Shown: in pieces, positions 585 through 62,621 of the stretch | Position numbering within the stretch: position 1 is the stretch's first letter | Layout: every line of letters starts with the position of its first letter | Origin: Octopus vulgaris | Lineage: Eukaryota | Length of the DNA: 64,000 bases | NCBI GenBank assembly: GCA_951406725.2 | Contig: OX597819.1 | Coordinates: 109,182,001-109,246,000, forward strand | Direction: 5' to 3' | Position numbers and translations under genes: made by a program | Notes under the pieces: model-generated | The model's database searches: none | Told to the model about the DNA's origin: nothing | What the model saw: only the letters and a program-made list of their open reading frames with translations

Positions 585-1479
585 AAATATCAATATCAAA
601 ATTTATTACAACATATCAACAATTATGAGTTTTTTGTCTTCTACAAGACAAGGTTTATTCCTCTTCAAGCTTGATGTGTTCAACTTCAATTTTATAAATA
701 TCAACTTCAGTATCATGGATATATCTAAATATATCAACACAATGAGAACTTTGATTTTTGATGAGGATTGTGCTGGATTTTGAGGAATTTGTTAGGAGAG
801 AATAAAAGAATGAGAATAATGAATAAAAGATTTAAGGGAAATTGATTTGGTCTTTGTTGTGTTTTCCTCATGGTTGACTTTGTGTTTCATCCTTTCGAGG
901 TCAATAAATTGAGCACCGTTTATATACTGGAGACAATCTAATTGCCTGGCTCCTCCCCATAAATTTTGGGCCTTGGGCCTAGAGAAGAGAAGAATATTTG
1001 CTATGTTGAATTGCTAAGTCATTTAACTATCCTCTTTATCTCACTGACTCTTTTTTTCTATTTCAGAATATCACATCCTGTTGACATAAAAGAAATTACT
1101 TCATTCAGATGTGCCTTTGATATTTTTATCAACTTTTATTGACTAAAGAAAGACGATATATTTATAAGGAGCATTCATCAATACATCTACCTTTTTACTA
1201 TAAAGAAAATCTATGACAAAATATGGCAAAATATTTCTTCTGGACGATGGAATTAACAGCAACAATTTGAAGTCCTTGCTATCTGGAATATAGAGGAGAT
1301 GATTGCTTTACAGGTTAATTAAGCTTGGATAACTTTACAAAGGCGTAGACAATTGTCACCTCATGATTTAGATATTAAGCAAAATCTCAGAGGAAAGAAA
1401 CGTCATTAAATTATTCCCTAAAAATAGTGACACAACTGAACACAAACATTCTCATAGAAATGAAATACACACTATCATT

Positions 1480-2646
1480 GTGATATGTATGACAAATAAT
1501 CCTCTCATAATGAATCATTTAACTAAAACAAACACATCTGATATAGGTGAGAAACCATATTACTCTAATACCTGTAGTAAAACATTCTCTAAAAGTGGTG
1601 TCTTCACTACACACAAACAGACACATAGAGGAGAGAAAGCATATCATTGTGATATCTGTGGTGAATCATACTCTTATAATAGTCAGTTGACTATTCATAA
1701 ACGTGTTCATACAGGTGAGAAGCCATATCATTGTGATATCTGTGGTAAATCATTCTCTCAAAGTGGTGCCATGACTATACACAAACGTACACATACAGGT
1801 GAGAAGCCCTATCATTGTGATATCTGTGGTAAATCATTCTCTATGAGTGTTGCCTTAACTAAACATAAGCGTACACATACAGGAGAGAAGCCCTATTGTT
1901 GTGATATTTGTGGTAAATCATTCTCTCGGAGTGGTCACTTGACTAAACACAAACTTACACATACAGGAGAGAAGCCATATCATTGTGACATTTGTGGTAA
2001 ATCATTCTCTCAGAGTTTTACCTTGACAAGACACAAAATTACACATACAGGCGAGAAGCCATATCATTGTGATATTTGTGATAAATCATACTCTTCAAGT
2101 AGTCACTTGACTTGTCACAAACGTGTTCATACTGGAGAAAGACCATATCATTGTAATATCTGTGGGAAATCTTTCTCTAAAAGTGGTGACTTGACTAGAC
2201 ACAGAATTACACATACAGGAGAGAAGCCATATCATTGTAATATTTGTGGTAAATCATTCTCTCAAAGTAGTGACTTAACTAAACACAAACGTGTTCATAC
2301 AGGAGAAAAGCCATACCACTGTGATATCTGTGGTAAATCATACTCTTATAATAGTCAGTTGACTATTCACAAACGTTTTCATACAGGAGAAAAGCCATAT
2401 CATTGTGACATCTGTGGTAAATCATTCTTTCGAAGTTGTAACTTGCATGAACACGAACGTACACATACAGGAGAGAAGCCATACCACTGTGATATCTGCG
2501 GTAAATCATACTCTGGAAATAGTCAGTTGACTATTCACAAACGCATTCATACAGGAGATAAGCCATATCATTGTGACATCTGTGGTAAATCATTCCCTCA
2601 AAAAGGTAACTTAAGTAGACATTTGAGTATTCATTCACAAGTGTAA
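1480..2646 (+). CDS. Tandem C2H2 (Kruppel-type) zinc-finger protein with 12 canonical fingers and 1 degenerate finger; the true start is uncertain (first in-frame ATG at 1489)
   Basis: Open 388-codon frame with CxxC-x12-HxxxH fingers and TGEKPY linkers. A polypyrimidine/AG acceptor at 1065-1066 suggests this is a terminal coding exon. Confidence 0.88.
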
Positions 2647-2762: not shown

Positions 2763-5265
2763 ATCATCATCATCATCATCATCATTTAATGTCCGCTTTC
2801 CATGCTAGCATGGGTTGGACGGTTCAACTGGGGTCTGGGGAGCCCGAAAGCTGCACCAGTCCAGTCAGATCTGGCAGTGTTTCTACAGCTGGATGCCCTT
2901 CCTAACGCCAACCACTCCGAGAGTGTAGTGGGTGATTTTATGTGCCACCGACACAGGTGCCAGACGAGGCTGGCAAACGGCCACACTCGGATGGTGTTTT
3001 TTATGTGCCACCGACACAGGTGCCAGACGAGGCTGGCAGACGGCCACGCTCGGATGGTGTTTTTATGTGCCACCGACACAGGTGCCAGATGAGACTGGCA
3101 AAACGGCCACGATCGGATGGTGCTTGTTACGTGCCCACAGCACGGAGGCCAGTCGATGCGGTACTGGCTACGGCCACGTTCGGATGGTTTTCTTGTGTGC
3201 CACGTGCCACCGGCACTGGTACCACAAGGATACAAATTCCATTGATGTTCATCTATTTTGATTTGTTTTGATTTGATTTTCACTTGCCTCAACAGGTCTT
3301 CACAAGTGTCACAAGAAGGAAGGTATGCACAGGTGGACTGACTACGTCCCAGGTAGGGGCCATGGGTTATGGCCTGACTAGTCTTGCCGGGTCTTCGGAT
3401 GGTGTTTTTATGTGCCACCGACACAGGTGCTAGATGAGGCTGGCGAACGGCCACGATCGGATGGTGTTTGTCATGTGCCCACCACACTGACTACAGCACT
3501 GATGGATTTCTTGTGTGCCACAGGCACTGGTACCACAAGATACAAATTCCATTGATGTTCATCTATTTTGTCTATTTTGATTTGATTTGATTTGATTTTC
3601 ACTTGCCTCAACCGGTCTTCACAAGTGTCACAAGAGGAAGGTATGCACAGGTGGACTGACTAGTCTTGCCGGGTCTTCGGAAGGTGTTTTTATGTGCCAC
3701 CGACACAGGTGCCAGATGAGGCTGGCGAACGGCCATGATCGGATGGTGTTTGTTACGTGCCCACAGCACGGAGGCCGGTCGATGCGGAACTGGCTACGGC
3801 CACGTTCGGATGGTTCTCTTGTGTGCCACCGGCACTGGTACCACGAAGTGTGTGCCACCGGCACTGGTACCACAAAGATACAGATTCCATTGATGTTCAT
3901 CTATTTTGATTTGTTTTGATTTTGATTTTCACTTGCCTCAACAGGTCTTCACAAGTGTCACAAGAAGGAAGGTATGCACAGGTGGACTGACTACGTCCCA
4001 GGTAGGGGCCATGGGTTATGGCCTGACTAGTCTTGCCGGGTCTTCGGATGGTGTTTTTATGTGCCACCGACACAGGTGCTAGATGAGGCTGGCGAACGGC
4101 CACGATCGGATGGTGTTTGTCATGTGCCCACAGCACGGAGGCCAGTCGATGCGGTACTGGCTACGGCCACTTTCGGATGGTTTTCTCTTGTGTGCCACCG
4201 GCACTGGTACCACAAAGATACAAATTTCATTGATGTTCATCTATTTTGATTTGTTTTGATTTGATTTTGATTTTGATTTTCACTTGCCTCAACAGGCCTT
4301 CACAAGTATCACAAGGAGGAAGGTATGCACAGGTGGACTGACTACGTCCCAGGTAGGGGCCATGGTTTATGGCCTGACTAGTCTTGCCGGGTCTTCGGAT
4401 GGTGTTTTTATGTGCCACCGACACAGGTGCTAGATGAGGCTGGTGAACGGCCACGACCGGATGGTGTTTGTTATGTGCCCACAGCACGATGGCCAGTGAT
4501 GCGGTACTGACTACGGCCATGTTCGGATGGATTCTTGTGTGCCACCGGCACTGGTACCACAAGCGGTACTGACTACTTTTTATGTGCCACCGACACAGGT
4601 GCTAGATGAGGCTGGTGAACGGCCACGACCGGATGGTGTTTGTTATGTGCCCACAGCACGATGGCCAGTGATGCGGTACTGACTACGACCACGTTCGGAT
4701 GGATTCTTGTGTGCCACCGGCACTGGTACCACAAGCAGTACTGACTACGGCCACGTTCGGATGGATTCTTGTGTGCCACCGGCACTGGTACCACAAAGAT
4801 ACAAATTCCATTGATGTTCATCTATTTTGATTTGTTTTGATTTTCACTTGCCTCAACAGGTCTTCACAAGTGTCGCAAGAAGGAAGGTATGTACAGGTGG
4901 ACTGACTACGTCCCAGGTAGGGCCCACGGGTTATGACCTGACTAGTCTTGCCGGGTCTTCGGATGGTGTTTTTATGTGCCACCATGTTCCCACAGCACGG
5001 AGGCGAGTCGACGCGGTACTGGCTACGGCCACGTTCGGATGGTTTTCTTGTGTGCCACAGGCACTGGTACCACAAAGATACAAATTCCATTGATGTTCAT
5101 CTATTTTGATTGATTTTCACTTGCCTCAGCTGGTCTTCACAAGTGTACCACAAAGATACAAATTCCATTGATGTTCATCTATTTTGATTGATTTTCACTT
5201 GCCTCAGCAGGTCTTCACAAGTGTCACAAGAAGGAAGGTATGCACAGGTGGATCGACTACGTCCC
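2763..5265 (-). repeat. Tandem array (about 7 partial units, mostly ~280-340 bp) derived from the 3' end/3'UTR of an RTE-clade LINE
   Basis: The marker CTATTTTG recurs at about 3253, 3562, 3901, 4241, 4822, 5101 and 5178. The reverse complement matches the RTE 3' end at 58050-58527. There is an (ATC)n tail at 2763-2785. Confidence 0.85.
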
Positions 5266-12598: not shown

Positions 12599-12954
12599 GT
12601 ATGACAGTTTTATTTTTGTTGTTGTTGTTGTTGTTTAGCCACAGGCCAAGCCTGATTGAGCAAAACTATGATCAAAGACATTCCATATTCAAGGCAGTTG
12701 CGTGTGGAATAAGTGAGAGTGTTTTGCTATCCTGATTGTACAGGGCTCATCCAGTTTCCATATCACTTAACAAATGGGACAGAGTTCTCTCTTGTCACTG
12801 GAGAGATGCTATTCATTGGAGTTAATTTTCCCTGAAAAGCCTTTCTAACCACACTGCCATACCTGCACCTATATATATATATACCGGAGTAAACACATAA
12901 ATGTGAAACAAGGTGGAAAAAAGAGTACTAAAATATCAGTGGTAGAGTAATATG

Positions 12955-13112
12955 CTTTATTTAAAGCAGCAGAAAATTCAACAAAATCTGTTACTCTGAG
13001 TTTCTCGTTGCCGTTCATCAGACAGTTTTTGCTAGAAAAAACTGTCTGATGAACGGCAACGAGAAACTCAGAGTAACAGATTTTGTTGAATTTTCTGCTG
13101 CTTTAAATAAAG
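12955..13112. repeat. Perfect 76-bp inverted repeat (6-nt loop) inside a (TA)n-flanked insert
   Basis: 12955-13030 is the exact reverse complement of 13037-13112. Confidence 0.95.
13042..13079 (+). ncRNA. Minimal type I hammerhead ribozyme motif; mirrored on the minus strand in the left arm
   Basis: CTGT-CTGATGA-aCGgcaaCGa-GAAA-CTCaGAG-TA-ACAG: stem I CUGU/ACAG, core CUGAUGA/GAAA, GUA cleavage triplet. The first pair of stem II is an A.A mismatch. Confidence 0.65.
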
Positions 13113-13529
13113 TATATATATATATATATGTGTGTGTGTGCGTGTGTGCAAATATTGATTTCAAATTTTGGCACAAGGCAAACAATTTCAAGGAAGAGGT
13201 AAGTTGATTGCATTGACCCCAGCACTCAACTGGTACTTAACTTTATTAACTCCAAAAAGATGAGAAGCAAAGTTGACCGTAGCAGAATTTAAACTCAGAA
13301 CCTGAAGATGGCCGAAATGCCGCTAAGCATTTCTGCCAGCTCGCCACCTTATATATGTAAATATTGACTGACAAACTCATAAGATGCCCATTGAAGTACT
13401 TACAGTTAAAGTATTCATAAGTGCTCATCAAATACTTTGAAAATCATTTAAAATACTCATAATTAGTAATTAAAATACTCGTGATTACTCATTAAATTGC
13501 TCGTAGATGGTCATTAAAATACTTGGTGT

Positions 13530-14274: not shown

Positions 14275-15440
14275 GATGCCACAAGGACATTATCATAAAA
14301 CTGGCCGACAAGGGTGAAGCTGTGGTGGTGTGGCGCGCAGACCTCTACAAGGCTGAAGCTATCTGCCAACTTCAAGACACCTCTTGCCCTCTGCCCTCCA
14401 ATCCTACACCTAGCTACTAACAGACTGTCCTCCACTATCCTTGACCTCATCTTCTTCTCCCATCTCCCTCCCACCGCTTCCAAACTCATTGTCCGCACTC
14501 CAGGCACCCCACCATCTACTTCCTTCCCAAAATCCGCAAGCTCAACAACCCCAGCCATCCCATCGTCTCTGCCTGTAACTGCCCCATGGAACTGGTCTCA
14601 AAATACCTTGACCATGTCCTTGCTCCCCTAGTGGCTTCCTTCCCCTCCCACATCCATGACACTAACCATGCTCTTCGTCTTTTCAAGTCTTTCTTCTTCC
14701 TTCCCGGACCTTCTAAACTTCTTTTCACTCTTGATATCAAGAGTCTATATACGGTGACCCCACACAACCAAGGAATTCTTTCCCTCAACCACTTCCTAGA
14801 CCTTCAACCCTACCCCCAACCTGACACATCCACACTTCTTTGTCTGGCTGAACTTGTTCTCTCCCTCAAATGCTTGTTCACAGTAGAGTTTTACCAACAG
14901 GTCTCAGGAGTGGCCATGGGAATGAGAATGGGCCCTAACTATACGAATCTGTTTGTTGGCTATGTTGAGGCCCAAATATTTTCAAGATTCACTGGTCCCA
15001 CTTCCGAACTATATGGTCATTATATTGATGACTGTATCGGTGCAGCCTCTCTCTCCCATGAACAACTAGACTCCTTCTTCTCTTTTGTCCAATCCTTCCA
15101 TCCTGCCCTCGAATTCTCCTGCACTATTTCCAACACTTCCATCTCCTTTCTTGGCATTTCAGTAAACATACACAACTCCACTCTCACTACAAACACACCA
15201 ATTCAGACTCATACTTCAAATTCTCCTCCTCCCACCGTACCCACACCAAGCTCTCCATCCCCTACTCCTAATTCCCCCTTCTGCACAGGCTCTGCAGTGA
15301 CAACCATGACTTTGAGACTCAGTCTCAACACATGGCTTGCCACTTCATCCTTCATAGATATCCCCTTGCCAGAGCACGTTCCGTGGACCATGCTTCTGCT
15401 CTCTCTCTCTGCACCATCCAGCATTCTGAACACCTTTTTC
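14275..15440 (+). mobile_element. Penelope-like retroelement reverse transcriptase remnant in RAD1 intron 3
   Basis: IIIKLADKGEAVVVW, LFTLDIKSLYT, YQQVSGVAMGMRMGPNYTNLFVG and YIDD motifs, broken by frameshifts. Confidence 0.85.
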
Positions 15441-15498
15441 TTTCATATGTATTAAATCTCTACATCACCCACAATACTTCTAACATATATATATATAA

Positions 15499-27334: not shown

Positions 27335-27744
27335 CATATGTTATAGAGCAGTTACTGTTTATATCTCGCTCAGAGATTTATTATTGTTTTCGAACAGATT
27401 TTCTACGCCAGTGACTGTGGTTACTGTGAAAATCTATATATCCAGCCTGTAGAGGAAGTCCCTCAACGAAGAGCGGTGCTTACCACACGTTGACAAGAGG
27501 CAATAACCTCGAAACCGGTCCGTGTGTAGTATCCGTATCTTCGGGGAGGCTGATCTCCCTTTGCAGGCTGGCAAGGACACCGAGATGGTGTCAGCTCTTC
27601 TGGTGACGTTGATGTTCGCCTGGGGCTAAATGCATCAGTAACACCCCCACCACCCCGCCCTGACCCTAGCCACATTCAGATGGCTGATCCCCCTTATGTT
27701 ATAGAGCAGTTACTGTTTATATCTCGCTCAGAGATTTATTATTG
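27335..27744 (+). mobile_element. Retrozyme-like insert: 358-nt monomer plus 50-nt terminal redundancy, flanked by a 12-bp TSD
   Basis: TAACTTATTTAA at 27323-27334 and 27745-27756. 27337-27386 is identical to 27695-27744. Non-coding, GC-richer than the flanks, and contains a hammerhead. Confidence 0.85.
27484..27526 (+). ncRNA. Type I hammerhead ribozyme with a U3-A8 core variant
   Basis: CACACG-TTGACAA-GAGGcaataaCCTC-GAAA-CCGG-TC-CGTGTG: 6-bp stem I, 4-bp stem II, palindromic stem III. Predicted cleavage after GUC at 27520. Confidence 0.8.
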
Positions 27745-30700
27745 TAACTTATTTAAGTTTGGGTTTAAAGGCCATAGTTATGCCACTTTGGCTATTTTTT
27801 ATTGTATTTATAAAAAAAAATTGCAAGCAATTACGCTTTAAATAAAACTTAGAAATTAAAAGAAGTGGCCATGTTTATCAAAAGGTAAGAGGATATAAAA
27901 GAAATAAGATGTAAGAATACTATAAAAGGAAGTCCAAGTTAAAACTAAAAGACTCAACACTTAAAGCAACTTAACAAATTACCATTTTTAAAAAAATGAA
28001 GTCAATTAGATATACAAGTCTTTGATTTCAAGGTTAATGCATAGTTTGAACATAAAATTTGAGTAACTGCTAGCATGAAATTGTACATTAAATGAAATAA
28101 AAATTGTAAAATATTGAACAGTTTATTCCTCTAGAATTTATTGAAGAAGTATTATGTCTATTGAATAAAGGTTAAATGAAAGAAGTCCAAAATTGACTAA
28201 CATCTTCTAAGTTATGGGGACATAAACCAACACCAATTGCCAGTCGATGGTAGGAAGATGAACACAAAGATACACATGTGCACTCACACACACAAATCAC
28301 ATACAAACCACACACATATGTATGGCAGGCTTCCACATAGTTCCTGTCTGCCAAATTCACTCACTCATTAGTCAACTTGGAGCTATAGTAAAAGATACTT
28401 GCCCAAGATGCCACACAGTGGAACTGAACCCAAAACCATGCGACTGCAAAGCAAGCTTCTTAACCACACAGCCACATTTGTGCCTATATCGGTATAAATT
28501 GGAAATTTTAATGCATTATATTATTTATATTTAGCTGAACTTGGAGTCAGTACATTTTTATCAACTCTGACTTCAGTAACCCATTAATTGCTTTTAAGTC
28601 CAATTTCTAACGATAATGATATAGTTTTTACAATGTTATAAATGAGAGATCATCAGAGATTATCTAGTATTGGTAGTAACTTTGGGGAGGTGAGGGTGTT
28701 GTGTTGTACACGACTGGAGACAATCGGGCACAAATTATACTATTTTTATATTACTTTTTGTTTTTATAGTTGTTGATGTGTTGTACATTTTATTTCATAT
28801 TACTTTCATGTATTTATTTTCTCATTGTAGAAATCTCAATTTTTGAAAGGTAATAAGAACTTCAAACCATGAAGATGGAACTGGATTTTCACAGAACAGA
28901 AAATACAAGCTTCATCTGATTATTCCTACCCACTGTCTTTGGTGAAGGATTTGAACAGAAACAAAACCATAATTATGTCAGTCCAACTCATACCAGCATG
29001 GAAAACAGACATTAATGGAAGATGATGTTAGCCATCTACCAACTTTTTCTGTTTTTCTCATAATTGCAGTTAACAACTGTCCTCATCATCACTCACCCAC
29101 TCATGAACAAACTTCATTACATGAAACAAGGGGTGGATTTCAAAATACTTTTCTCTCTGAGGGAAAGCAAAGTGGCAGCTATAAAGTTGTATATATTATT
29201 TGTTTGTTTTATATGGAATATTTAATTAAAATAAACTGGAAATTGTTTTCACTTTTTTAAATTTAATTCAATTTAAATCATGCTGGTGCCATGTTAAAAG
29301 CACCCAGTACACTGAGTGGTTGGCATTTGGAAGCGCATCCAGCCATAGACACCATGTCAGAATAGACAATGGAGCCTGGTGCACCTCCCAGCCTTACCAG
29401 CTCTGGTCAAACCGTTCAACCAATGCCAACATGGAAAACAATGATGATGATAATGATGACAATGATGGCTTTATCCTCAAGTCAGTTCTCATTGAACCAA
29501 CCTAACACCATAGGTGTTCCAAATGTGATCATCCTGTTTCTGTTTAAAATACAATGTAAACAGAGCTACATTATTATGAATAACTTCCTTTTTTTAAAGA
29601 TTTTACCAGTATTTGATTTAAGGAAGATTTGGTTGCTATTTCTAGTAGATGAAGCAACCGTGTATGAGCTCTTTTGGAGGAGGCTCATAACATTTACCTT
29701 AACAAGTGATATCAAAATTCTCGGCTGATGCAAGTCAGTGGAAACTACCCTGAAGGTTAGACATGTTATGTAAGTGAATGCTACATGAAAATATTTTGAG
29801 AATTAATAGTGAAAGTAATTGTGGTAAAAGCAACTAGGAGTGAGGTTTCATCATTGAAATAATACAGGGTTTAAACATACGCAGTCATTCTGTATTGCAA
29901 GTACATACAACCCATGTCAGCGTGGATATTGCTGAGGACTGCACATGGTTCTGTGTGTATACAAAATAGACTAGAGAAGTTTCAATATATATATTTCAGT
30001 GTGTCAAGGGATGCTGGTAGCTGCATCACTATTCAAAGCTATTTAGTACTATCTACAGTGGAGCTGAGGCATAAATATCATCTGCTTAAAACTGTACAGG
30101 GCAAAGCTAAGCTCTGTCTTTTTAAATTACTATGATCCTGGATTGTAGCATGAAGAATTTGAAGGGAAATGGAAGCACATGTTATTCCTCCTAAATATTT
30201 GATCAGCTCCTTTCTGCACGACAGGTTTTCTATGAATGTTTGTGAAAAGATACTTCAGTAAAACATAGCAATGAAGTTATAACAGAGTTTTCTCCCTTGT
30301 GTATGTGAACTAAATTAAGTCTCGATTTCTCATGTATATTCCTAAGTTCGGATCTAATTGAAGAGACCTAAGCTCAAAAGGCTTGCCAAGCCGTGACAAC
30401 TCTGTTTTTCTAATTCCGTTTTTAAGACAGTAAAGTGTGATTTGAAGATTTTGGTGTTGTTTCTAACAAGTTCATGATGATTGATATTGTTATTCAGTCT
30501 TGACTTAGCCATGATTGAACAGACTAACTAAAGAATGGTTCCATTGACAACAGTTCCATCTTATTTATTTTTAGATATAGTATATATATAGCATTTCATT
30601 ATCTAATATGTCCTTCCTTTTTTTTGGTGATTTGAAGGAGGGAAATTTCTAGTAGATTGAATGACATTGTAGAGGTTATCTTTTGGCTTGTGTTAACTTG

Positions 30701-32973: not shown

Positions 32974-33786
32974 TTATTGTTTTTTTAAATATTGTAAAAG
33001 GGATGTTTGTTTTAATCTTTTCTCTTTACGCAAAGCCCTATAGCAACTGAGTGCTTTTTCAATTTGTTTACTGACTAGCATCGCTCTTTCTACATTTGGA
33101 TCTGAGCCCATTATCATCTGCTTTCCATCTTCAAAAAATTTCAAAATTGCGTCGATTTCATTAATTGAGAATTCTTTCATTTGTGACATAGCTTCGTCTT
33201 GATCAACACTACTAGCATCTTCAGTAATTTGTTTAAATTCGGCGGGATGTCTAGTTGCTGCACTATCGTCCGAACACGCACTTTTCCCTACAATTCCAAG
33301 GTTATACATTTTAGATCGTTTTCTAAACCTGACGAGCCATCCAGAACTTCCAAAAAATGTTTCGTTAGTTTCCGCTTCGGTTTTCTTTTCTTCTTTCCGT
33401 TTTCTTTGGACCGCTCCAAACAAACTGACAGCTTTCTTTTTAATGGCCGTTGTATTTAAAGGAATGTTCTTTTGATTGCAGTCTTCGATCCAAATTGACA
33501 ATAGCCGTTCCATTTCAATCATTGTAGAGCTGCGGTTTCTTGTTGTTTGGAAATTCGACGACAAAGCCGCACTTTGTCCCTTTTCTTTATAAATCTTCGA
33601 GTTCTGAATAATATTGCGCACTGTTGATTCGCCGATAGCGTGTTCTCGGCTAATCTTTGCTTTAGTAAAACCGCTTTCATATTTATCAATTATTGCTAAT
33701 TTTTCTTCCAGTCCTACAACTTTTCTTTTCTTCTTCTCAGCACTTCCACCACTTGTACTGGTGGTACTCTCTTCTTTAGTACTCAT
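32974..33786 (-). CDS. Tigger/pogo transposase-derived protein (psq-type HTH + CENP-B HTH; DDE domain absent), 270 aa
   Basis: KKRKVVGLEEKLAII...IGESTVRNI, MERLLSIWIEDCNQKNIPL, FFGSSGWLVRFRKR and a C-terminal KQTSLLQYL motif, in an uninterrupted ORF. The ATG at 33786 is preceded by a candidate acceptor TTTTTCCCTAACCCTCAAG. Confidence 0.82.
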   Translation of the reverse strand: MSTKEESTTSTSGGSAEKKKRKVVGLEEKLAIIDKYESGFTKAKISREHAIGESTVRNIIQNSKIYKEKGQSAALSSNFQTTRNRSSTMIEMERLLSIWIEDCNQKNIPLNTTAIKKKAVSLFGAVQRKRKEEKKTEAETNETFFGSSGWLVRFRKRSKMYNLGIVGKSACSDDSAATRHPAEFKQITEDASSVDQDEAMSQMKEFSINEIDAILKFFEDGKQMIMGSDPNVERAMLVSKQIEKALSCYRALRKEKRLKQTSLLQYLKKQ

Positions 33787-36700
33787 GATAATAACTTGAG
33801 GGTTAGGGAAAAACTCCCGATTAATGTAACTCCGAATAACATGGTTTATAATTCGACACCAGCTTCCGAAAAACAAAATACATATATATATGATATGCAG
33901 ATGTAGCTATGTATAATAACAAATCATTAAAATACATTCGGCAGCAGTTGAAAGAAAGAAAAGAAACTGAAGGAGAAATTATACTACATTATTTTTCATT
34001 TCTTATACATACCGTTATACTGCAGTAAATCGAATTCTTATACGCAGTATTCGAATTTTAATGTCTAACTACCAATCGCATAAAATCAAGAACCGAAGTA
34101 TTACAGTATGTATAAATTGAGAGAGTGGTGGGGGGACATTTCATGGTGCTGATGATAGAGCGACATATATAGCGAGAAAGAAAGAGGTGACGACTAAAGA
34201 GTGATAGAATAATAGGGTAATGTATATATGAAATGAAAAAGGCATGTAAACGATTATTTTAAAAAATTACTAGTATATAGAGATAAAATTAGGAGCTTTG
34301 GACATGGAAGCTAAACTTACAAAGATAGTAGACAAATTGAAACATAACCTATATTATTTTTATCAATGAGAATTCTAAAAGGATTTTTTTATTGGGTATA
34401 AAACTACTACTCTGATCGAAATAAATATCCATGTATGCAAACGTTCGCAACACTTCATGCACATTTGCAATCCCATTCAAAAATTATGCTGTATAAAATA
34501 AGCACCTTTGAAAAAGCCATCACTGAAGTTTTCAATTTATAAATAATGAAAACCATGAATTACAGCACAATAGACTCGTTTCACTTCAAACCAGAAGCTA
34601 TTAATTCCCAGTCATCTATGGAACCATGTAATAAATAATTATCTGTGTGAGTTAATAATTTGTACGGCATTTATAAACAGATATACGGCTATTATAATTA
34701 GAGTAATTATCATTTCTTTTTATAAAGCAATTTTCTGGGGGTTTCATTTATTTATTTATTTTTTCAGTTATAAGCACCACAAGGGTACTTGAAGTCCTGT
34801 AGCAATTCGTAACTTTTGTTACAGCCATAAATATATTATTCTCAGCTTTGTTTAGATACTTAAATTTATTGTGATTTTGTGCTTGAAAAATTTAAATGAA
34901 TTTCTAAATTGGAATTTAATAAAAGGAACTAAGATAGGCATGACGTCATCTGTTGTCCTTGTTAACCAGTCTCTCCTCCTCTTCCTCTTCCCGCTACCAT
35001 TTCCTCTCTCTCTCCCATTTTTTGTTCTCACCATCCATCTTTTGCTTCTGTTTTTTACTATAACTTCTCCCAAAACATGCGTTGCTTCAACTACAATCAA
35101 TGAATACAGAAATAGCACCACCCCACTACCACCACTCTGAATACTCCTTCTCCCACCACCACTTACTACTACTACCACCGTCAATATTTTTACCGCTCTT
35201 AGTCGTCTTCCCATCCTTTCTCCAATTTAGGGTTGGGTGTTCGATCTTGTAGATGAACATCCTAATTTAGGATTAGAGTTTTTTTTTAGACAGATATTTA
35301 GGGCGCTAGGCAATCAGTCAGTTTATTTAAACAATGGTACTAAGACAGCTTACGCAAAGACCATTTTCGAGATATTGGTGTTTAGGGAGCTTGGCAATTA
35401 TTTTAGTCAATGGTGTTTAAGAAGTGAGGCAAACACCCGTTCGTGACAATGGCGTTTGAAAAATAAGACAAATACCGATGAGAGTGGGATTTGGGGGAGG
35501 CTAGGACTAGAGCAGTTGCCTGCTTGACATTGTCATAGCTTGATGTGTAAACGCATTCGTTGTAATCGTGTGAATTTAGGACAATGCACATGGAGGCAGC
35601 CGAGTGGCGGAAAAAAGCAAATAAGTGCCCACTACTACGAGTCAATGAGGGCAGATGAGTGGGCATGGCTCTACGTAGTTGAGAAATGTATCTTAAATCC
35701 CACCCTTCCTACTCAAGAGGAAGGGCGCATTAGATAGTATCTGTATCCACCAACTCTTATAGTAAGGGATAGTCCGCTCGATAATCCTCCATTTATCTTT
35801 AACTTGAGTTTTTTTCTTATTAATTGTTGCATCTTTAGTTCTGTAATCTATAATATTAGTAATCCAACCTTTCAAATAATGTAAGTCCTACATAACTCTA
35901 CGTTGCTGTTGCTTAAAGAAATTAACCCTAAAAGATGGGACGGTTATGACTGGAATGCATTTGATCATTGGTCTGTCGAATCAATGATGACCTGGGGTTA
36001 AACCGATACACCACTATTGTCCGCATTTTTGTATCCTAATATTAAAGACTGCTCTCTTCCCCCTCTCTCTTCAACGATGATGGTAACGAAAACGGATAAG
36101 CATCCGAAACGTTGGCCCTGTCTACTTCCTAGCATATTTCACTGTTCGAACCACTAAATTCTGTTACTTTTTGCCGTCGCAATCACTGACTTCCCTACCA
36201 CTACATCGCCACTATTACCTAAATTTGGGATCATTTTCTCAATATGAAACGCATGGAGTGGTTGTATTCCATTTCTTTTTACGATTATTAGCTAACTAGT
36301 TGGCCAATTAACATATCTATTAATTAGGTCATCGACGAGTTAATTGGTTGACTAAGTAATAAGTGAAATAGAACCGCTGTGTTTCTTACTGGGGAATAAA
36401 ATAACCCACAAGATTTCACAAGAAGAATCGTTCAAAAGTTTTGAATTTGTTTCGAAAGAATTTTCATCTTTAATCGTGTATTGAAACCAACATTGCTTTA
36501 GTTGGGAAGTCATTCTATTTCATTTCGCATTTTTGGAAAGAGAAGTGAAATACAGACAAGCCACAACCGTTGAGTGTTTATTGGCTTTGTTAAATATGAC
36601 TCATCCCAAACAAGAAAATCTGGCAATACAAAAACTAACTAAACTACTCCACTACCCGTTGTTCTTTGTCTACATAGACTCTTGATACTACTTAATATTC

Positions 36701-48814: not shown

Positions 48815-49050
48815 AAAATAATAGTTATCGCCATACTAATATGGCATTCTTATAAAAATAAGAATAAAGCTATCCGCTTATTAGCTCCATGAGGCCATCG
48901 CCTTAAGTTAGCTTGTTCGAAGGTTATATGGATACAGTTTGTGTATCAAATAGCTAACTTAAGGCGATGGCCTCATGGAGCTAATAAGCGGATAGCTTTA
49001 TTCTTATTTTTATAAGAATGCCATATTAGTATGGCGATAACTATTATTTT
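48815..49050. repeat. Perfect 99-bp inverted repeat with a 38-nt spacer, between (TA)n tracts
   Basis: 48815-48913 is the exact reverse complement of 48952-49050. Confidence 0.95.
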
Positions 49051-50149: not shown

Positions 50150-51669
50150 AATAATAATAATGAAATTATTGTATACAGTGCTCAGGTGCACCACAACTTG
50201 TCAGAAAGTGCATATAAAGTACATGCAGTAGTGTAGAAATGTCTGGGTGTATGGAGGGAAGAAAATCAAGTGTAGTGTTGGCGAATCTCAGGAAGCATGG
50301 AAGTCTTGAAGGATGCAGTGCTCCGACAACTGACAACCGATGTCGGCAGTTTGTTCCACGCTTCAGCAACTCTCAGCGTGAAAAAATGTTTCCTGAAGTC
50401 ATGGGAGCTGTGCTGTTTTCTTACTTTGTAAATATGTCCACGGGTGTTAGATGGGTGGAGTTTGAAGAGGTGCTCAGAGTTATTGTTTGTGCGATGGTTG
50501 ATAATTTTATGGGTGTCTGCCAAGTCAGCTGCCAGACGTCGGAGTTTTAATGTGTCCATGCCCAGGGAGGTAAGGCGTTCAGGATATGGCAAATGCCTGA
50601 TGGAGGGTATTCTTTTGGTTGCACGTCACTGAACAGCTTCCAGACGATTGATGTCCTGGGCAAGATAGGGGCTCCAGACCGGCGATGCAAACTCCAGGTG
50701 AGGTCTTACCATAGCTATATAAAGCCGCAGATAGATAGCCGGAGAGCGGCTCACAAAGGATTTGGTGAGTGATGCCGAGACACCCTCAGCCTTCTTGACA
50801 ATTTTAGCGATGTGTTTTGTCCAATGCAAATCGCTGTCGACAATAACACCCAGGTCACGTTCACTTGAAGACTTTTTGAGACTAGTGTTGTGGAGGGAGT
50901 AGGTGGACGCTGGGTTTCTCCTCCCAAAATGCATGGTGGTACATTTGTCCACAGCCAGCTTGAGTTGCCAGTCCATGATCCACTGCTGCATTGTGTCCAG
51001 GTCTGCTTGCAATAGAGATCCATAGTGTATAGGATTTGACCTCTTTATTTCGAGGTACAGCTTGATGTCATCTGCATATTTCAGCACTGTGGCATTCTTT
51101 AAGTTGACATCTATGTCATTAACATATGCAACAAATAAAAGGGGGCCAAGAACAGATCCCTGCGGCACACCAGATGTCATCTCATAGGGCGAAGAGTGCT
51201 GTCCTAGAACTGTGACAACCTCTTTTCGGCCGAAAATAAAGGACTTTAACCAGTTATAGAGTTCGTCTCTTACACCCAACGCAGAAAGCTTCACCATAAG
51301 TCTTTTGTGTGGCACAGAGTTAAAAGCCTTAGCAAAGTCCAGGTAAACAACATCCACCCAGGATCCGCGATCAGTGATTTGGGTAACATCCTCAAGAAAC
51401 TCGATGAGTTGATTACAACAGCTGGAGTTAGGAATAAATCCGAATTGTGACGGCTGGATGAGGCTGTGAGACTTCCAGAAGTTCCAGAGGGTTTCTCTGA
51501 TACAGGATTCCATCAGTTTGGCGATGCAGCTGGTAAGACTGACGGGGCGATAGTTGACAGGCGATGTGCGGTCGCCTTTTTTGAACAGAGGGATGACACT
51601 GGCAGTTTTCCACTGTTCTGGAGTAACACCATTGTCAAGACAGAATTGGAAGAATAGAGAAAGTTGGCT
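50150..51669 (-). mobile_element. 5'-truncated CR1/L2-group LINE (RT domain to 3' end) inserted into a SINE
   Basis: One frame runs WKTASVIPLFKKG, NYRPVSLTS, YLDFAKAF, GVPQGSVLGPLLF, YADD to FFTLRVAEAWNKLP, with a single TGA at 50626-50628 and a (TTA)n-like tail. The SINE halves lie at 50056-50149 and 51670-51960. Confidence 0.92.
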
Positions 51670-52221
51670 TCGGGTCGATCAAAGCCTTGTGAGTGGATTT
51701 GGTAGATGGAAACTGAAAGAAGCCCGTCATATATATGTATATGTATATATATATGTGTGTGTGTTTGTGTCTGTGTTTATCCCCACTAACATCACTTGAC
51801 AACCGATGCTGGTGTGTTTACGTCCCTGTAACTTAGCTGTTTGGCAAAAGAGACCGATAGAATAAGTACTAGGCTTACAAAAGAATAAGTCCTGGGGTCG
51901 ATTTGCTCAACTAAAGGCTGTGCTCCAGCATTGCCACAGTCAAATGACTGAAACAAGTAAAGGAGTAGATGACTAAGGCAAATAATGGAGTGAAATATAG
52001 GAGAGGCTTGGGTGCGGGTTTTTGTAGTCGGTATGCAGGGGCATTGAGGATGATAGCAGATAAGGGAGGTGTTAAGAATAGAGAACAACACAGGGATAGA
52101 AGGCACAGAGGTGACTTGTGGAGGCAGTAGGTGGGATAATGGGAGCAGTTGAGAAAATCAATTTGCCATGTATCTGTAATCTTTACAGTTCCTGTGCATC
52201 TTCCACATACAAACACTATCT

Positions 52222-53297
52222 TGGAACTCTCTGAATTTCAAATAGGCCATTTTGTAGGTCAATCTGAAAGTGGACTTAGTCAGCATAAAACCTTGTGATC
52301 CTACATTCTACAGTTAATAGAATGATTTTGTAATTCACCAGAGAGAGGAAGGAGTACACATCATCTCACCTAGGTTGACCAGGGTCCTCTGACAGGACCC
52401 TTCACTTTGTTAAGTGAAGTGTGGACGATAATCCTCATTGCAAGGTCTCTGCCATAGCAGAACAAGTTGATGTCAATCCCAGAACAGCTATCAAGTATCT
52501 CCACAAACTTGGCTACAATGGCAGAGCAGCAAGAAGGAAGCTACTTCTTTGACCAGCTAATATCAAGCGGAGAAAAGATTGGGCCAGTGAGATGGTGGAG
52601 AGGCCACCAGCATTTTGGGACACTGTCATATTTTCTTATGAGTCCAAATATGTTGTTTTTTCCGACGGTGGTCGAGTGTGGGTCTGGAGATTCTGTGATA
52701 AAAAATTTGACATGAAATGATTGTAGCCAACAATGAAACACGATGGCTAATCTGTGATGGTCTGGGGAGCAATGGTTAATCAGGGCTGGTGGAGTGTGAG
52801 GGAAACATAAACTCAGATAAATATGTGTACATATTGCATAAAGTACTCCTTCCAATCTTCTCCAGTGGTGAAATGATTAAAGAAAACTCTTTATTTATGG
52901 AAGATGGGGCTCCTTGTCACAGCTAAAAAGATAAAAAATTGGTTGGAAAAGAATGGCATTAAAAATCTTCCATGGCCAAGCCAGTCAACAGACATGAACC
53001 CTATTAAACATCTCTGGGGCATAATAGACAGGACACTTTGTAAAAAGAACAAGAAAGCATCTGCAAAGCCAGATCTTTAGATATTACTGCATGAAACTTG
53101 GCAAGAAATTCCTCAAGAGAATATTCACCATCTGATCAGTAGCTTGTTTAATAGGGTCCTTGCATTGAAAAATGCAAAGGGCATGTCTTCTAAATATCAG
53201 ATATTCACATTATAAATTATAATAATTAATAAATAGTTTGAATGTATAATTTCAGGTTTAAATAAATCTTAATGATTATAAAGGTGTCTATTTACTT
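52222..53297 (+). mobile_element. Degraded Tc1-like transposon
   Basis: ELSEFQIGHFVG at the start and FMEDGAPCH...[15 protein letters not shown], matching the Tc1 QDxAPxH / WPSQSPDLNPIE motifs. Several frameshifts. Confidence 0.82.
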
Positions 53298-53464
53298 ATA
53301 TATATATATATATATAAAAATAAATATAAGAGAGTGGTCACTATATGGCTCACTCTAGCACTAGTTAATCCAAAAGGTTTCAACCACAAAAATACTTGTT
53401 TCCCATGAAAGTCAGTACGATTGTTAGCTCACACGAACAGGGCAAATAAAAAATAACAAAAATA

Positions 53465-53560
53465 CAGATTATTTTGGGACAATTGTTTCGCTATTAATGA
53501 ATTAAATGTAATTTTACTTACAAAAAAATCCACTTGTAGCTCCTCAGCCAAAACTATCTG
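53465..53560 (-). ncRNA. Type I hammerhead ribozyme with canonical core
   Basis: Minus strand: CAGATAGTTTTGG-CTGAGGA-GCTA(long loop)TAGC-GAAA-CAATTG-TC-CCAAAATAATCTG. Stem I spans 13 positions with one mismatch and one GU; stem III is palindromic. GUC cleavage falls between 53478 and 53477. Confidence 0.85.
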
Positions 53561-54006
53561 GATGAAATCCACTCAATCACACGCCAGATTTTACCATAAC
53601 GATAAATACACGTGTGGTTCAATTGATTACATCCGACGTTATAATTCAAATGCCCCTACTAACAGCGCGCCAAACTTTCACGGGAACAAATACCACATTT
53701 AGAAGTAAATGTAGCATAATTATAATTAATTAATAAGGGTGAGAGAATTAGATACTAATTGAATAGTATATCTATTCAACACCAAGTGGCCCAGTGCTCC
53801 GAGAAACCTGGATTATTATAATATTTTGTAATATATTATAATATTTTATACAAAAATAAATATAAGAGGGTGGTCACTATATGGCTCACTCTAGCACTAG
53901 TTAATCCAAAAGGTTTCAACCACAAAAATACTTGTTTCCCATGAAAGTCAGTACGATTGTTAGCTCACACGAACAGGGCAAATAAAAATAACAAAAATAC
54001 AGATTA

Positions 54007-54088
54007 TTTTGGGACAATTGTTTCGCTATTAATGAATTAAATGTAATTTTACTTACAAAAAAATCCACTTGTAGCTCCTCAGCCAAAA
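54007..54088 (-). ncRNA. Type I hammerhead ribozyme, second copy (6-bp stem I)
   Basis: TTTTGG-CTGAGGA-GCTA...TAGC-GAAA-CAATTG-TC-CCAAAA. Cleavage falls between 54013 and 54012. Confidence 0.82.
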
Positions 54089-54475
54089 GCATATATATCT
54101 ACCATAATTCTTAATCCAATGCCATCCATTTTTACACAGGTGACACGATGCAGTGAATATGAAAGAAGGTGAGTGCCAGAAAGATATGAGCTCAGTAATA
54201 GAGAAATGTTTTAAATGGGAGTCCATATATCTTATAGCCTCCATTGCTAACACAATTCACCCTTTGTCTCGCCATATCTATGTGGATGATCCTCTCCAGT
54301 ACTGGTGCCACAGAAAAAATCTATCCAGTACATTTATGAAGTGATAAGGTAGCTGCCTATTTCTTGAACCAGTCTTAAACAAAAGAATAAATATAATTAT
54401 GTAGAGACAAGGTGGCCAAGTGAATAAGACATCCAACTATCTACTCATTAGCTTAGGATTCAAATGTACTTCAGA

Positions 54476-61310: not shown

Positions 61311-61745
61311 TTATTCAAGAATTTTATTTTCGTAGTCGATTGAGGTCAAAGGTAATTAAAAAATTAATTAGAGGTGAATGGCAAACGAGAAAAACATATC
61401 AACAATGTGTTTTTTATATTTGTCGGAAATTTAGTAAAATTTCCAATAAAACAAAGAAAAAAAATCGCAAACAGAATCTATAGTAAAAATCGTATCTTTC
61501 GCATGGCTAGCTTTTCTTCTTCATCTGCTGCGGAAGCAAGCAAGTCAGGAAGAAAGAATACCACAGTTTGATTATAAAAAGTCGCCTTGGAATTTTATCT
61601 TCTCTTATTTCTTCTGCTATCAGCGAATATAATATTGCTTAAGAAGAAAGGAAAACTATATTTGTGTAAACTCCGTCATCAAACTTGAATTTCAGTCGGA
61701 TTCCATTGTTGAGGAAAAAAGCTACTACAACACTCCAAATTAAAA

Positions 61746-62621
61746 ATGACGGGGAATTATTGCGACGATGACCCCAACGCAGAAAAATTCCGCAAGCTGT
61801 TCATTGGAGGTCTCAATAATGAGACTACAGAAGATACTCTTCGCCAGTACTTTGAAACTTGGGGTGAAGTTGTAGATTGCGTGGTGATGAAAAATCCGAC
61901 CAACAATCGTTCTCGTGGCTTCGGCTTTGTCACTTATCAGTCGGCTGCACAACTAGACAAGGCACAGGCACAGCGACCGCACACGCTCGATAAGAAGACT
62001 CTGGACACGAAGCGCGCCATGCCTCGCGATGGATCTGAGGAGACTCAGGCGTCGGTAAAGAAAATGTTCGTCGGCGGCCTGGAAGAGACCACAAGCGAAG
62101 AAGAAATCCGTGAACTATTCTGCCCGTACGGCAGGATTGAAAAAGTGGAAATGATTAAAGACAAGGCAACTGGTAAGCAGAAGCGTTTCTGCTTTGTCAC
62201 CTTTGATGATTTCGACTCTGTAGACAAGTGTGTAATTAGAAAAAGATTTCCTTTAGGGGACAAAAGCATCGAAGTTAAGAAAGCTGTATCGAAGACTGAA
62301 ATGGGCGGTCGTGGAGGAGCCGGAGGTCGTTCAGGCGGCCGCGGCGGTGGTGGAGGCGGCTACGGTGGAAACTGGGGATCGAACCAGGGTAACTACAACA
62401 ACGGCGGCGGTTATTACCAAGGCAGTGACGGGCGCTACGGAGGCCATGGTTACAATAATGGCTATGGTAGTAATTTCGGATCCAATTACGGCAGCGGATC
62501 TTTCGGTGGGGCCCAAAGACAAGGTAATTTCTCACATCGTAATACTAGTGGACCTTACGGTAGGGGTTACGGTAGAGGTGGTGGTGGTGGTAGTAGTAGT
62601 ATGGGCGGATATAGACGTTAA
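61746..62621 (+). CDS. Heterogeneous nuclear ribonucleoprotein A/B family (hnRNP A1/A2/Hrp-like), 2 RRMs + Gly-rich tail, intronless CDS
   Basis: RKLFIGGL and RSRGFGFVTY in RRM1; KKMFVGGL and RFCFVTFDDFDSVDK in RRM2; RGG/GY-rich C-terminus ending in GPYGRGYG. Good start context AAAATGA. Confidence 0.95.
   Translation: MTGNYCDDDPNAEKFRKLFIGGLNNETTEDTLRQYFETWGEVVDCVVMKNPTNNRSRGFGFVTYQSAAQLDKAQAQRPHTLDKKTLDTKRAMPRDGSEETQASVKKMFVGGLEETTSEEEIRELFCPYGRIEKVEMIKDKATGKQKRFCFVTFDDFDSVDKCVIRKRFPLGDKSIEVKKAVSKTEMGGRGGAGGRSGGRGGGGGGYGGNWGSNQGNYNNGGGYYQGSDGRYGGHGYNNGYGSNFGSNYGSGSFGGAQRQGNFSHRNTSGPYGRGYGRGGGGGSSSMGGYRR

Follow-up and report, generated by a model that had tools for sequence, protein, structure and literature searches.

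The question raised by this locus is what kind of element carries two hammerhead ribozymes in direct repeat on the minus strand of the window (the whole 64-kb stretch of Octopus vulgaris DNA that was analyzed): a dedicated cassette for RNA excision, a copy of a retrozyme, or the remnant of a Penelope terminal repeat.

Locus anatomy and predicted ribozyme fold

A descriptor scan located only these two hammerheads in the 64-kb window, whereas 30 windows simulated with a Markov model averaged 0.1. An Rfam scan of the window gave no hammerhead match at E<=1, probably due to the long domain II. The insertion comprises the following features.

53311..54088, minus strand: whole insertion, a single 5'-truncated arm of 1.45 units with its 3' end at site A (L001)
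54007..54088, minus strand: upstream type I hammerhead, truncated, with a 6-bp stem I; predicted cut 54013/54012
54088-54083, minus strand: 5' strand of the upstream stem I
54082-54076, minus strand: upstream core CUGAGGA
54075-54025, minus strand: upstream domain II, 51 nt, with closing pairs GCUA/UAGC
54024-54021, minus strand: upstream GAAA
54021-54014, minus strand: upstream 8-nt palindrome ACAAUUGU
54013, minus strand: C17 of the upstream GUC
53465..53560, minus strand: downstream type I hammerhead, with CUGA at 53547 and C17 at 53478; predicted cut 53478/53477
53560-53548 paired with 53477-53465, minus strand: extended stem I of the downstream hammerhead; the extension is missing from the upstream hammerhead
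53478..54012, minus strand: cut-to-cut monomer, 535 nt, non-coding, predicted to be strongly self-paired
53847..53868, minus strand: internal copy of site A, monomer position about 145-166, a putative reverse-transcription start
53721..53740, minus strand: internal copy of site B, monomer position about 273-292, a putative second start; no end lies here at the window locus
53296..53332, minus strand: terminal site A, which continues into the (TA)n target microsatellite
54089..54100, no strand: 5' flank, a short TA run that is the putative remainder of the target site; no readable target-site duplication

The two minus-strand type I hammerheads in direct repeats, with predicted cuts 535 nt apart, had been proposed in the initial annotation and were borne out. 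The repeats (242/243 nt) differ by one substitution and a 1-T homopolymer indel before the TA-rich end. A long AU-rich stem II loop had also been described. Its length was upheld in the 51-nt domain II, but not its unpaired state, as this domain is predicted to form a paired extension with a hairpin. Given only 1.45 units, release of a monomer from the window copy would need transcription starting upstream of 54088.

The double hammerhead was the unconstrained minimum free energy structure of a 661-nt precursor (-175.1 kcal/mol versus -167.4 kcal/mol for two enforced single hammerheads). Stem III forms a 2-bp hairpin within one ribozyme, whereas an 8-bp helix is formed between two. For the circle, the predicted fold of the sense strand reached -144.6, compared to -108.6 +/- 7.1 for shuffled sequences and -108.6 for the antisense strand, and the predicted self-pairing of the monomer had a z of about -5 on the sense strand with no excess on the antisense strand. 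The monomer has 32.5% GC, and its longest ATG frames span 23 aa (sense) and 46 aa (antisense). Both the sequence and the predicted fold agree with the retrozyme-like unit and dimer geometry assumed at the outset.

Among 85 loci, an intact CUGANGA core was found in 78, in which N7 was C (38), G (26), A (13) or U (1). A U4C core change occurred in 4/85 loci, including the 12-site array L061, and 3/85 were unclassifiable. The family has an extended stem I and a long domain II (compare the loop I-loop II contact of type I hammerheads). In a comparison of 15 copies, both young and old, pairing was seen in 96.5% of cells, and five of the 12 stem I pairs had changed on both sides; as these copies are related, the changes represent few independent events. 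Core variation mainly at N7, together with stem I covariation, is evidence of ribozyme function, short of demonstrating cleavage.

Elsewhere in the window, a second hammerhead-like element (27484-27526 within 27337-27750, plus strand) harbors the non-canonical core UUGACAA and short direct repeats at 27337 and 27695. It is unrelated to the 535-nt unit and has a relative in L299. The earlier assignment of the two elements to separate families is supported by the lack of BLASTN similarity between them (best E 0.54). Long near-perfect inverted repeats with arms of 84 nt and 99 nt are positioned at 12950-13117 and 48815-49050, respectively. The window further contains a C2H2 zinc-finger array (1372-2646, plus strand), a CENP-B/Tc5-type transposase fragment (32974-33906, minus strand), a LINE-like RT fragment (50626-51678, minus strand) and an RRM-domain frame (61713-62621, plus strand).

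The family and its insertion footprint

The genome was searched over 2.8 Gb in about 30 large contigs. A 16-letter core pattern gave 2,645 exact matches genome-wide and a control pattern gave 0, and exact junctions between site B and (TA)n numbered 831 genome-wide. The search with the unit yielded 1,297 candidate places, of which 39 were scored (identity 94-99%), part of the locus sampling being score-biased. Copies are dispersed over many chromosomes with unrelated flanks. They form head-to-tail arrays of up to 15 cut sites per arm, and with their variable 5' ends these arrays show no LTR layout. An older subfamily, also non-coding, is 70-80% identical and has a unit of 503 nt in L141. Judged from these copies, the family is a young, high-copy, non-coding tandem element.

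Loci of the older subfamily (L110, L134, L141, L145, L212 and L213) show compensatory stem I changes and use the same A and B ends. L300 (5752-5815) holds a piece that is more distant still, and L135 contains a scrambled mosaic of unit fragments (3920-4351) adjoining part of a Hydra end region.

Across 96 arms, 5' ends are scattered over the whole unit, with a mild excess near positions 440-475. Because these ends cover the entire unit, the start of the insertion at stem I (54088) is attributed to chance truncation, and the idea that this start is a designed boundary, which had been singled out as special, was rejected. Nor did the view of the locus as a dedicated two-ribozyme cassette hold, the window copy being a truncated insertion of an abundant family. 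It is an ordinary short copy, one of probably >1,000 loci.

Arms have one of two 3' ends: site A lies about 160 nt beyond the cut and site B about 290 nt beyond it, the two being 130 nt apart. Arm ends abut (TA)n in 149/154 cases (92/96 and 57/58). Among 98 parsed loci, 55 are head-to-head two-armed insertions, and all 55 pair one A end with one B end (by set, 32/32, p = 2e-10 as coin tosses, and 23/23). Single arms account for 42 loci (24 A, 18 B), and L097 is compound. The first footprint set consisted of 63 loci, 27 of which came from an unranked pattern list while the others were score-selected. In four arms an apparent stop right at the cut proved to be a BLAST artefact; the junctions to which they belong cross the cut. 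Partial tandems, an inverted 5'-truncated arm and a tail at one end were found, and the same three features are described as marks of Penelope-like elements in the part of PMC8557442 considered here. In vitro, two internal RT start sites account for the Penelope tail (PMC11167929, in part).

This footprint also bears on the possibility that the arrays are a minisatellite amplified at the DNA level alone, with the ribozyme as a fossil. Head-to-tail arrays and a few periodic shared variants (L306, L310) would be compatible with such an origin, and a satellite route is discussed in a section of bioRxiv 10.64898/2026.07.22.740005. However, the copies are dispersed over many chromosomes with unrelated flanks, their fold is strand-specific and their substitutions are strand-asymmetric. 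The fixed A and B ends at (TA)n, the inverted arms and above all the A+B rule, which largely refutes amplification at the DNA level, make it highly improbable.

Candidate Penelope partners and related systems

The initial annotation had set a retrozyme against a Penelope element as alternatives. The non-coding unit agrees with the former, but the clean split between the two was lost, since Penelope insertion marks are present. An ORF with RT and C-terminal GIY-YIG is absent from the 535-nt unit. In translated searches of 120 unit-bearing stretches (two of them overlapping, flanks of 1-4 kb), Penelope coding sequence was joined upstream on the same strand in only one, L102, and its ORF is 3'-truncated. 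This check had been set beforehand, and by its outcome the unit does not always occur as the end repeat of a coding Penelope. In L102 (1235-2960; G000:C1:7.518 Mb, with a duplicate at C1:205.86 Mb), the truncated Hydra ORF runs into the 3' end of the older subfamily, with the fusion point in the cut-site palindrome; this chimera would have resulted from a template switch or a DNA deletion.

The Hydra-clade coding families of this genome possess intact ORFs with RW, DKT and LYRDD motifs, as well as CxCX5C in two families, and these motifs match the published Hydra definition and alignment. They end in (TA)n and carry hammerheads that resemble those of the 535-nt unit, with a domain II of 53-60 nt and a ACNNNNGU palindrome; Neptune elements in the genome likewise end in (TA)n. 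Head-to-head insertions of coding Hydra elements combine a short with a long end in 12/13 resolved pairs, if each pair is taken as one insertion, and the exception belongs to the 842-aa family. Among the Hydra loci sampled (L198-L217, L218-L257 and L283-L302), which have intact ORFs and long-domain-II hammerheads, some are full-length tandems about 3.6 kb apart. One octopus Hydra family was found in the supplement of PMC8557442, as far as that supplement was covered.

The sampled Hydra families of about 778, 842, 899-934, 976-984 and 1090 aa were rejected as the parent; none ends in the 535-nt unit. The window itself contains a degenerate Neptune-type Penelope RT (14445-15455, plus strand). 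For its family 8,916 candidate places were counted, and open frames of close to 1,000 aa are present at many of them. As a parent, this family was rejected by sequence; its end is a different, unrelated one, and it carries a hammerhead-like motif of its own. Among the best-scoring candidates of the sampled Neptune and Hydra families, none matched with the unit as its terminal repeat, and alignment of the unit to nine Penelope end regions gave a z of at most 3.1. Over about 40 nt spanning the cut, the unit is similar to a Hydra end (E 0.002, in a single set of 20 loci). Since no coding element with the unit was found and z was at most 3.1, the link to Hydra is drawn from architecture, footprint and one chimera. 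On this basis a Hydra-clade enzyme is a likely mobiliser, which we propose with good confidence.

If a coding Penelope element existed outside the sample, the units could be its ordinary pLTR remnants. All insertion marks are Penelope-like (PMC8557442, in the part consulted), and the stretch resembling a Hydra end, the L102 chimera and the scoring of best candidates only in the genome searches would all accommodate this explanation. However, the arms run upstream into further units, with up to 15 cut sites, and not into an ORF. The single truncated ORF among 120 stretches and the non-coding state of the older 503-nt subfamily also argue against it. We regard a pLTR origin as improbable, and the unit appears not to be an ordinary pLTR.

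The family was compared with published systems using parts of the cited papers. Animal non-LTR retrozymes from coral, mussel and axolotl (PMC7229834, bioRxiv 10.64898/2026.07.22.740005) are also non-coding, have a GC content below 50% and form tandem units. They share with the 535-nt family one type I hammerhead per unit, a weak stem III suited to dimer cleavage, a strongly folded monomer and co-occurrence with Penelope-like elements. The unit length of 535 nt exceeds the 170-400 nt given in PMC7229834 but lies within the 51-972 bp of bioRxiv 10.64898/2026.07.22.740005. In contrast to the retrozymes in the parts of these papers examined, the octopus family has a structured domain II of 51 nt, and its fixed paired ends, two-armed insertions and A>G bias are not described for them. 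RNA circles have been demonstrated for animal retrozymes and are proposed for the 535-nt family. Penelope mobilisation via circles is proposed in this literature (PMC7229834), with the mechanism named unresolved in bioRxiv 10.64898/2026.07.22.740005. At the level of sequence, the 535-nt family falls within the definition of animal non-LTR retrozymes (PMC7229834, PMC7761336, bioRxiv 10.64898/2026.07.22.740005, as given in the parts covered).

Like the family, elements of the Hydra clade (PMC8557442) insert into (TA)n, form partial tandems, have an inverted arm with 5' truncation and a tail at one end, and carry a hammerhead near the 3' end. The Hydra families of this genome additionally share the hammerhead with long domain II and palindromic stem III and the rule of one short and one long end. 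Differences from the clade are the lack of an RT or GIY-YIG ORF in the unit, a tail of 130 nt compared to 30-40 nt, and the absence of significant sequence homology between the unit and any sampled Hydra end. A short stem II sets the published Hydra-1_Obim hammerhead (PMC8557442) apart from that of the 535-nt unit. The anole Poseidon element PAc (PMC11167929) is similar in that two internal RT starts set the tail, cleavage and extension occur on both target strands, and the target is AT-rich. PAc is autonomous, whereas the 535-nt element is non-coding. In vitro, the start sites of PAc were not seen to differ between strands, and it inserts independently of its hammerhead; in the octopus family every two-armed insertion has one A and one B end. 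Chlamys elements such as MRC1 (PMC8557442) are likewise non-coding Penelope derivatives with multicopy head-to-tail insertions. In the sections of that paper covered, the non-autonomous Chlamys elements generally resemble their autonomous partner at the 3' end, the clade mostly lacks canonical hammerheads, and the hosts are algae. A published account of the 535-nt family, the A+B rule or edited retrozymes was not found in the openly accessible literature, surveyed mostly at listing level and, for the bioRxiv preprint, in its main text. Taken as a non-autonomous retrozyme mobilised by a Penelope enzyme, which it very probably is, the family has its direct basis in tandem units, a conserved hammerhead, (TA)n targets and two fixed 3' ends.

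Template and substitution record

The units of the arrays were compared over 276 full units from 85 loci, with the units of L144 replaced by those of the longer L323. Pairs of units differ on average at 0.77 positions within arrays and 0.72 across two arms, but at 15.2 between loci. Among 53 arrays 38 haplotypes were distinguished, and in 18/53 arrays, including one of 15 units, private variants are fixed in every unit. Substitutions within arrays (n=80) are singletons in 67 cases and shared in 13. No indels were found at the cut junction in 205 junction matches (four counted twice). The near-identity of units within arrays and the indel-free junctions point to repeated passage through a single unit, as a circle provides. 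End-to-end jumping between linear monomers is unlikely, as junction scars are absent. Circular RNA was probably the main template, a reading in which we place fair confidence.

Other observations point to longer templates. In 29 two-armed loci, both arms share 3/40 variants in overlapping register (L061, L091 and L310), and a monomer circle cannot explain these three. L306 has a pair of linked variants that return in units 3 and 6 of one arm, the pattern expected from a trimeric circle, and L310 has linked variants two units apart. Anole PAc mutants in the hammerhead still insert in vitro, and uncut RNA is the main substrate (PMC11167929), while 1/9 Xenopus dimers was cleaved (bioRxiv 10.64898/2026.07.22.740005), both as reported in the parts of these sources covered. 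The three shared variants in register, the period of three in L306, the arrays with U4C and the behavior of PAc indicate that multimeric templates were therefore used at least sometimes.

This could be taken further: the same element and enzyme might use an uncut linear multimeric transcript, so that longer arrays act as the source from which arrays are copied and recombination extends them in place, with cleavage serving RNA turnover, 5' processing or the like. The three variants common to both arms and the existence of arrays with a U4C core would be expected under such a process. PAc, too, inserts from unprocessed RNA, with no reads ending at its cut (PMC11167929, in part), and 10 arrays have one haplotype in common, as a master array would give, in a sample biased by the query. 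However, changes along lineages are array-wide 89 times and in register only three times, and expansion in place predicts blocks of shared variants, whereas 67/80 substitutions within arrays are singletons. Edited linear RNA would also give A>G changes in single units, which are rare (3/67). We therefore consider exclusive use of linear multimers rather unlikely, and a circular RNA remains the preferred main template.

The direction of the substitutions was analyzed on a tree of 39 arrays with three or more units, using tests picked after a first look at the spectrum and p values uncorrected throughout. On the ribozyme strand, A>G accounts for 33 of the 89 array-wide changes and T>C for 10 (p = 7e-6); the A>G count stays at 28-33 under five rootings, and terminal branches show 18 versus 6. 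By contrast, single-unit changes include only 3 A>G versus 11 T>C (Fisher p = 4e-4 against array-wide). A 3' G follows 7/25 A>G sites, compared to 17/151 adenosines (p = 0.009). ADAR prefers a 3' G, and coleoid cephalopods exhibit high A-to-I editing. The predicted fold places 26/33 A>G changes at paired sites, and selection for G.U pairs may contribute to the bias. Under a crude model based on singleton rates, C>T should outnumber A>G at paired sites, whereas 26 A>G versus 7 C>T were seen. The array-wide bias fits one edited circular RNA that is copied repeatedly, and ADAR stands about an even chance of being its cause. Among single-unit changes, G>A also outnumbers C>T on the sense strand (22 versus 7, p = 0.04, uncorrected, 39 arrays), a pattern that would be expected from deamination of single-stranded cDNA.

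With fair confidence, the window copy can be described as a 5'-truncated animal non-LTR retrozyme with Penelope-type marks that was copied by a borrowed Hydra-clade enzyme from a circular 535-nt RNA. Read-through transcripts of at least two units are predicted to fold as a double hammerhead, from which the monomer would be cut out, and by analogy with other retrozymes a host ligase would close it into a circle. The Penelope RT-endonuclease would then cut both strands of a (TA)n tract. Site A would serve as the start of one cDNA and site B as that of the second, each cDNA circling the template for a variable number of rounds, and the two cDNA 5' ends would join head to head. RNA-level changes, most likely from A-to-I editing, would thereby end up in all units of the newly made array. 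The copy in the window would be one such arm, stopped after 1.45 rounds.

The enzyme and the circular template proposed for animal retrozymes in PMC7229834 and bioRxiv 10.64898/2026.07.22.740005, as far as these were covered, are both issues on which this family bears. It supplies a candidate enzyme in the intact Hydra-clade ORFs of the same genome, exact predicted starts (A and B), and the strict pairing of one A with one B end, which also bears on tail formation in Penelope elements. A more far-reaching interpretation reads the arrays as a record in DNA of rolling-circle reverse transcription, in which a dimeric Hydra-clade enzyme used two fixed starts on one circular RNA to prime at either end of a cleaved (TA)n tract and A-to-I edits became fixed in every unit. 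This is put forward tentatively, as a possibility that is more likely wrong than right in its full form. The A>G bias suggests that RNA-level changes reach germ-line DNA by the retrozyme route. If the full interpretation is true, RNA editing would be the chief source of mutation in a heritable element, and genome sequence alone could reveal the life cycle of a retrozyme.
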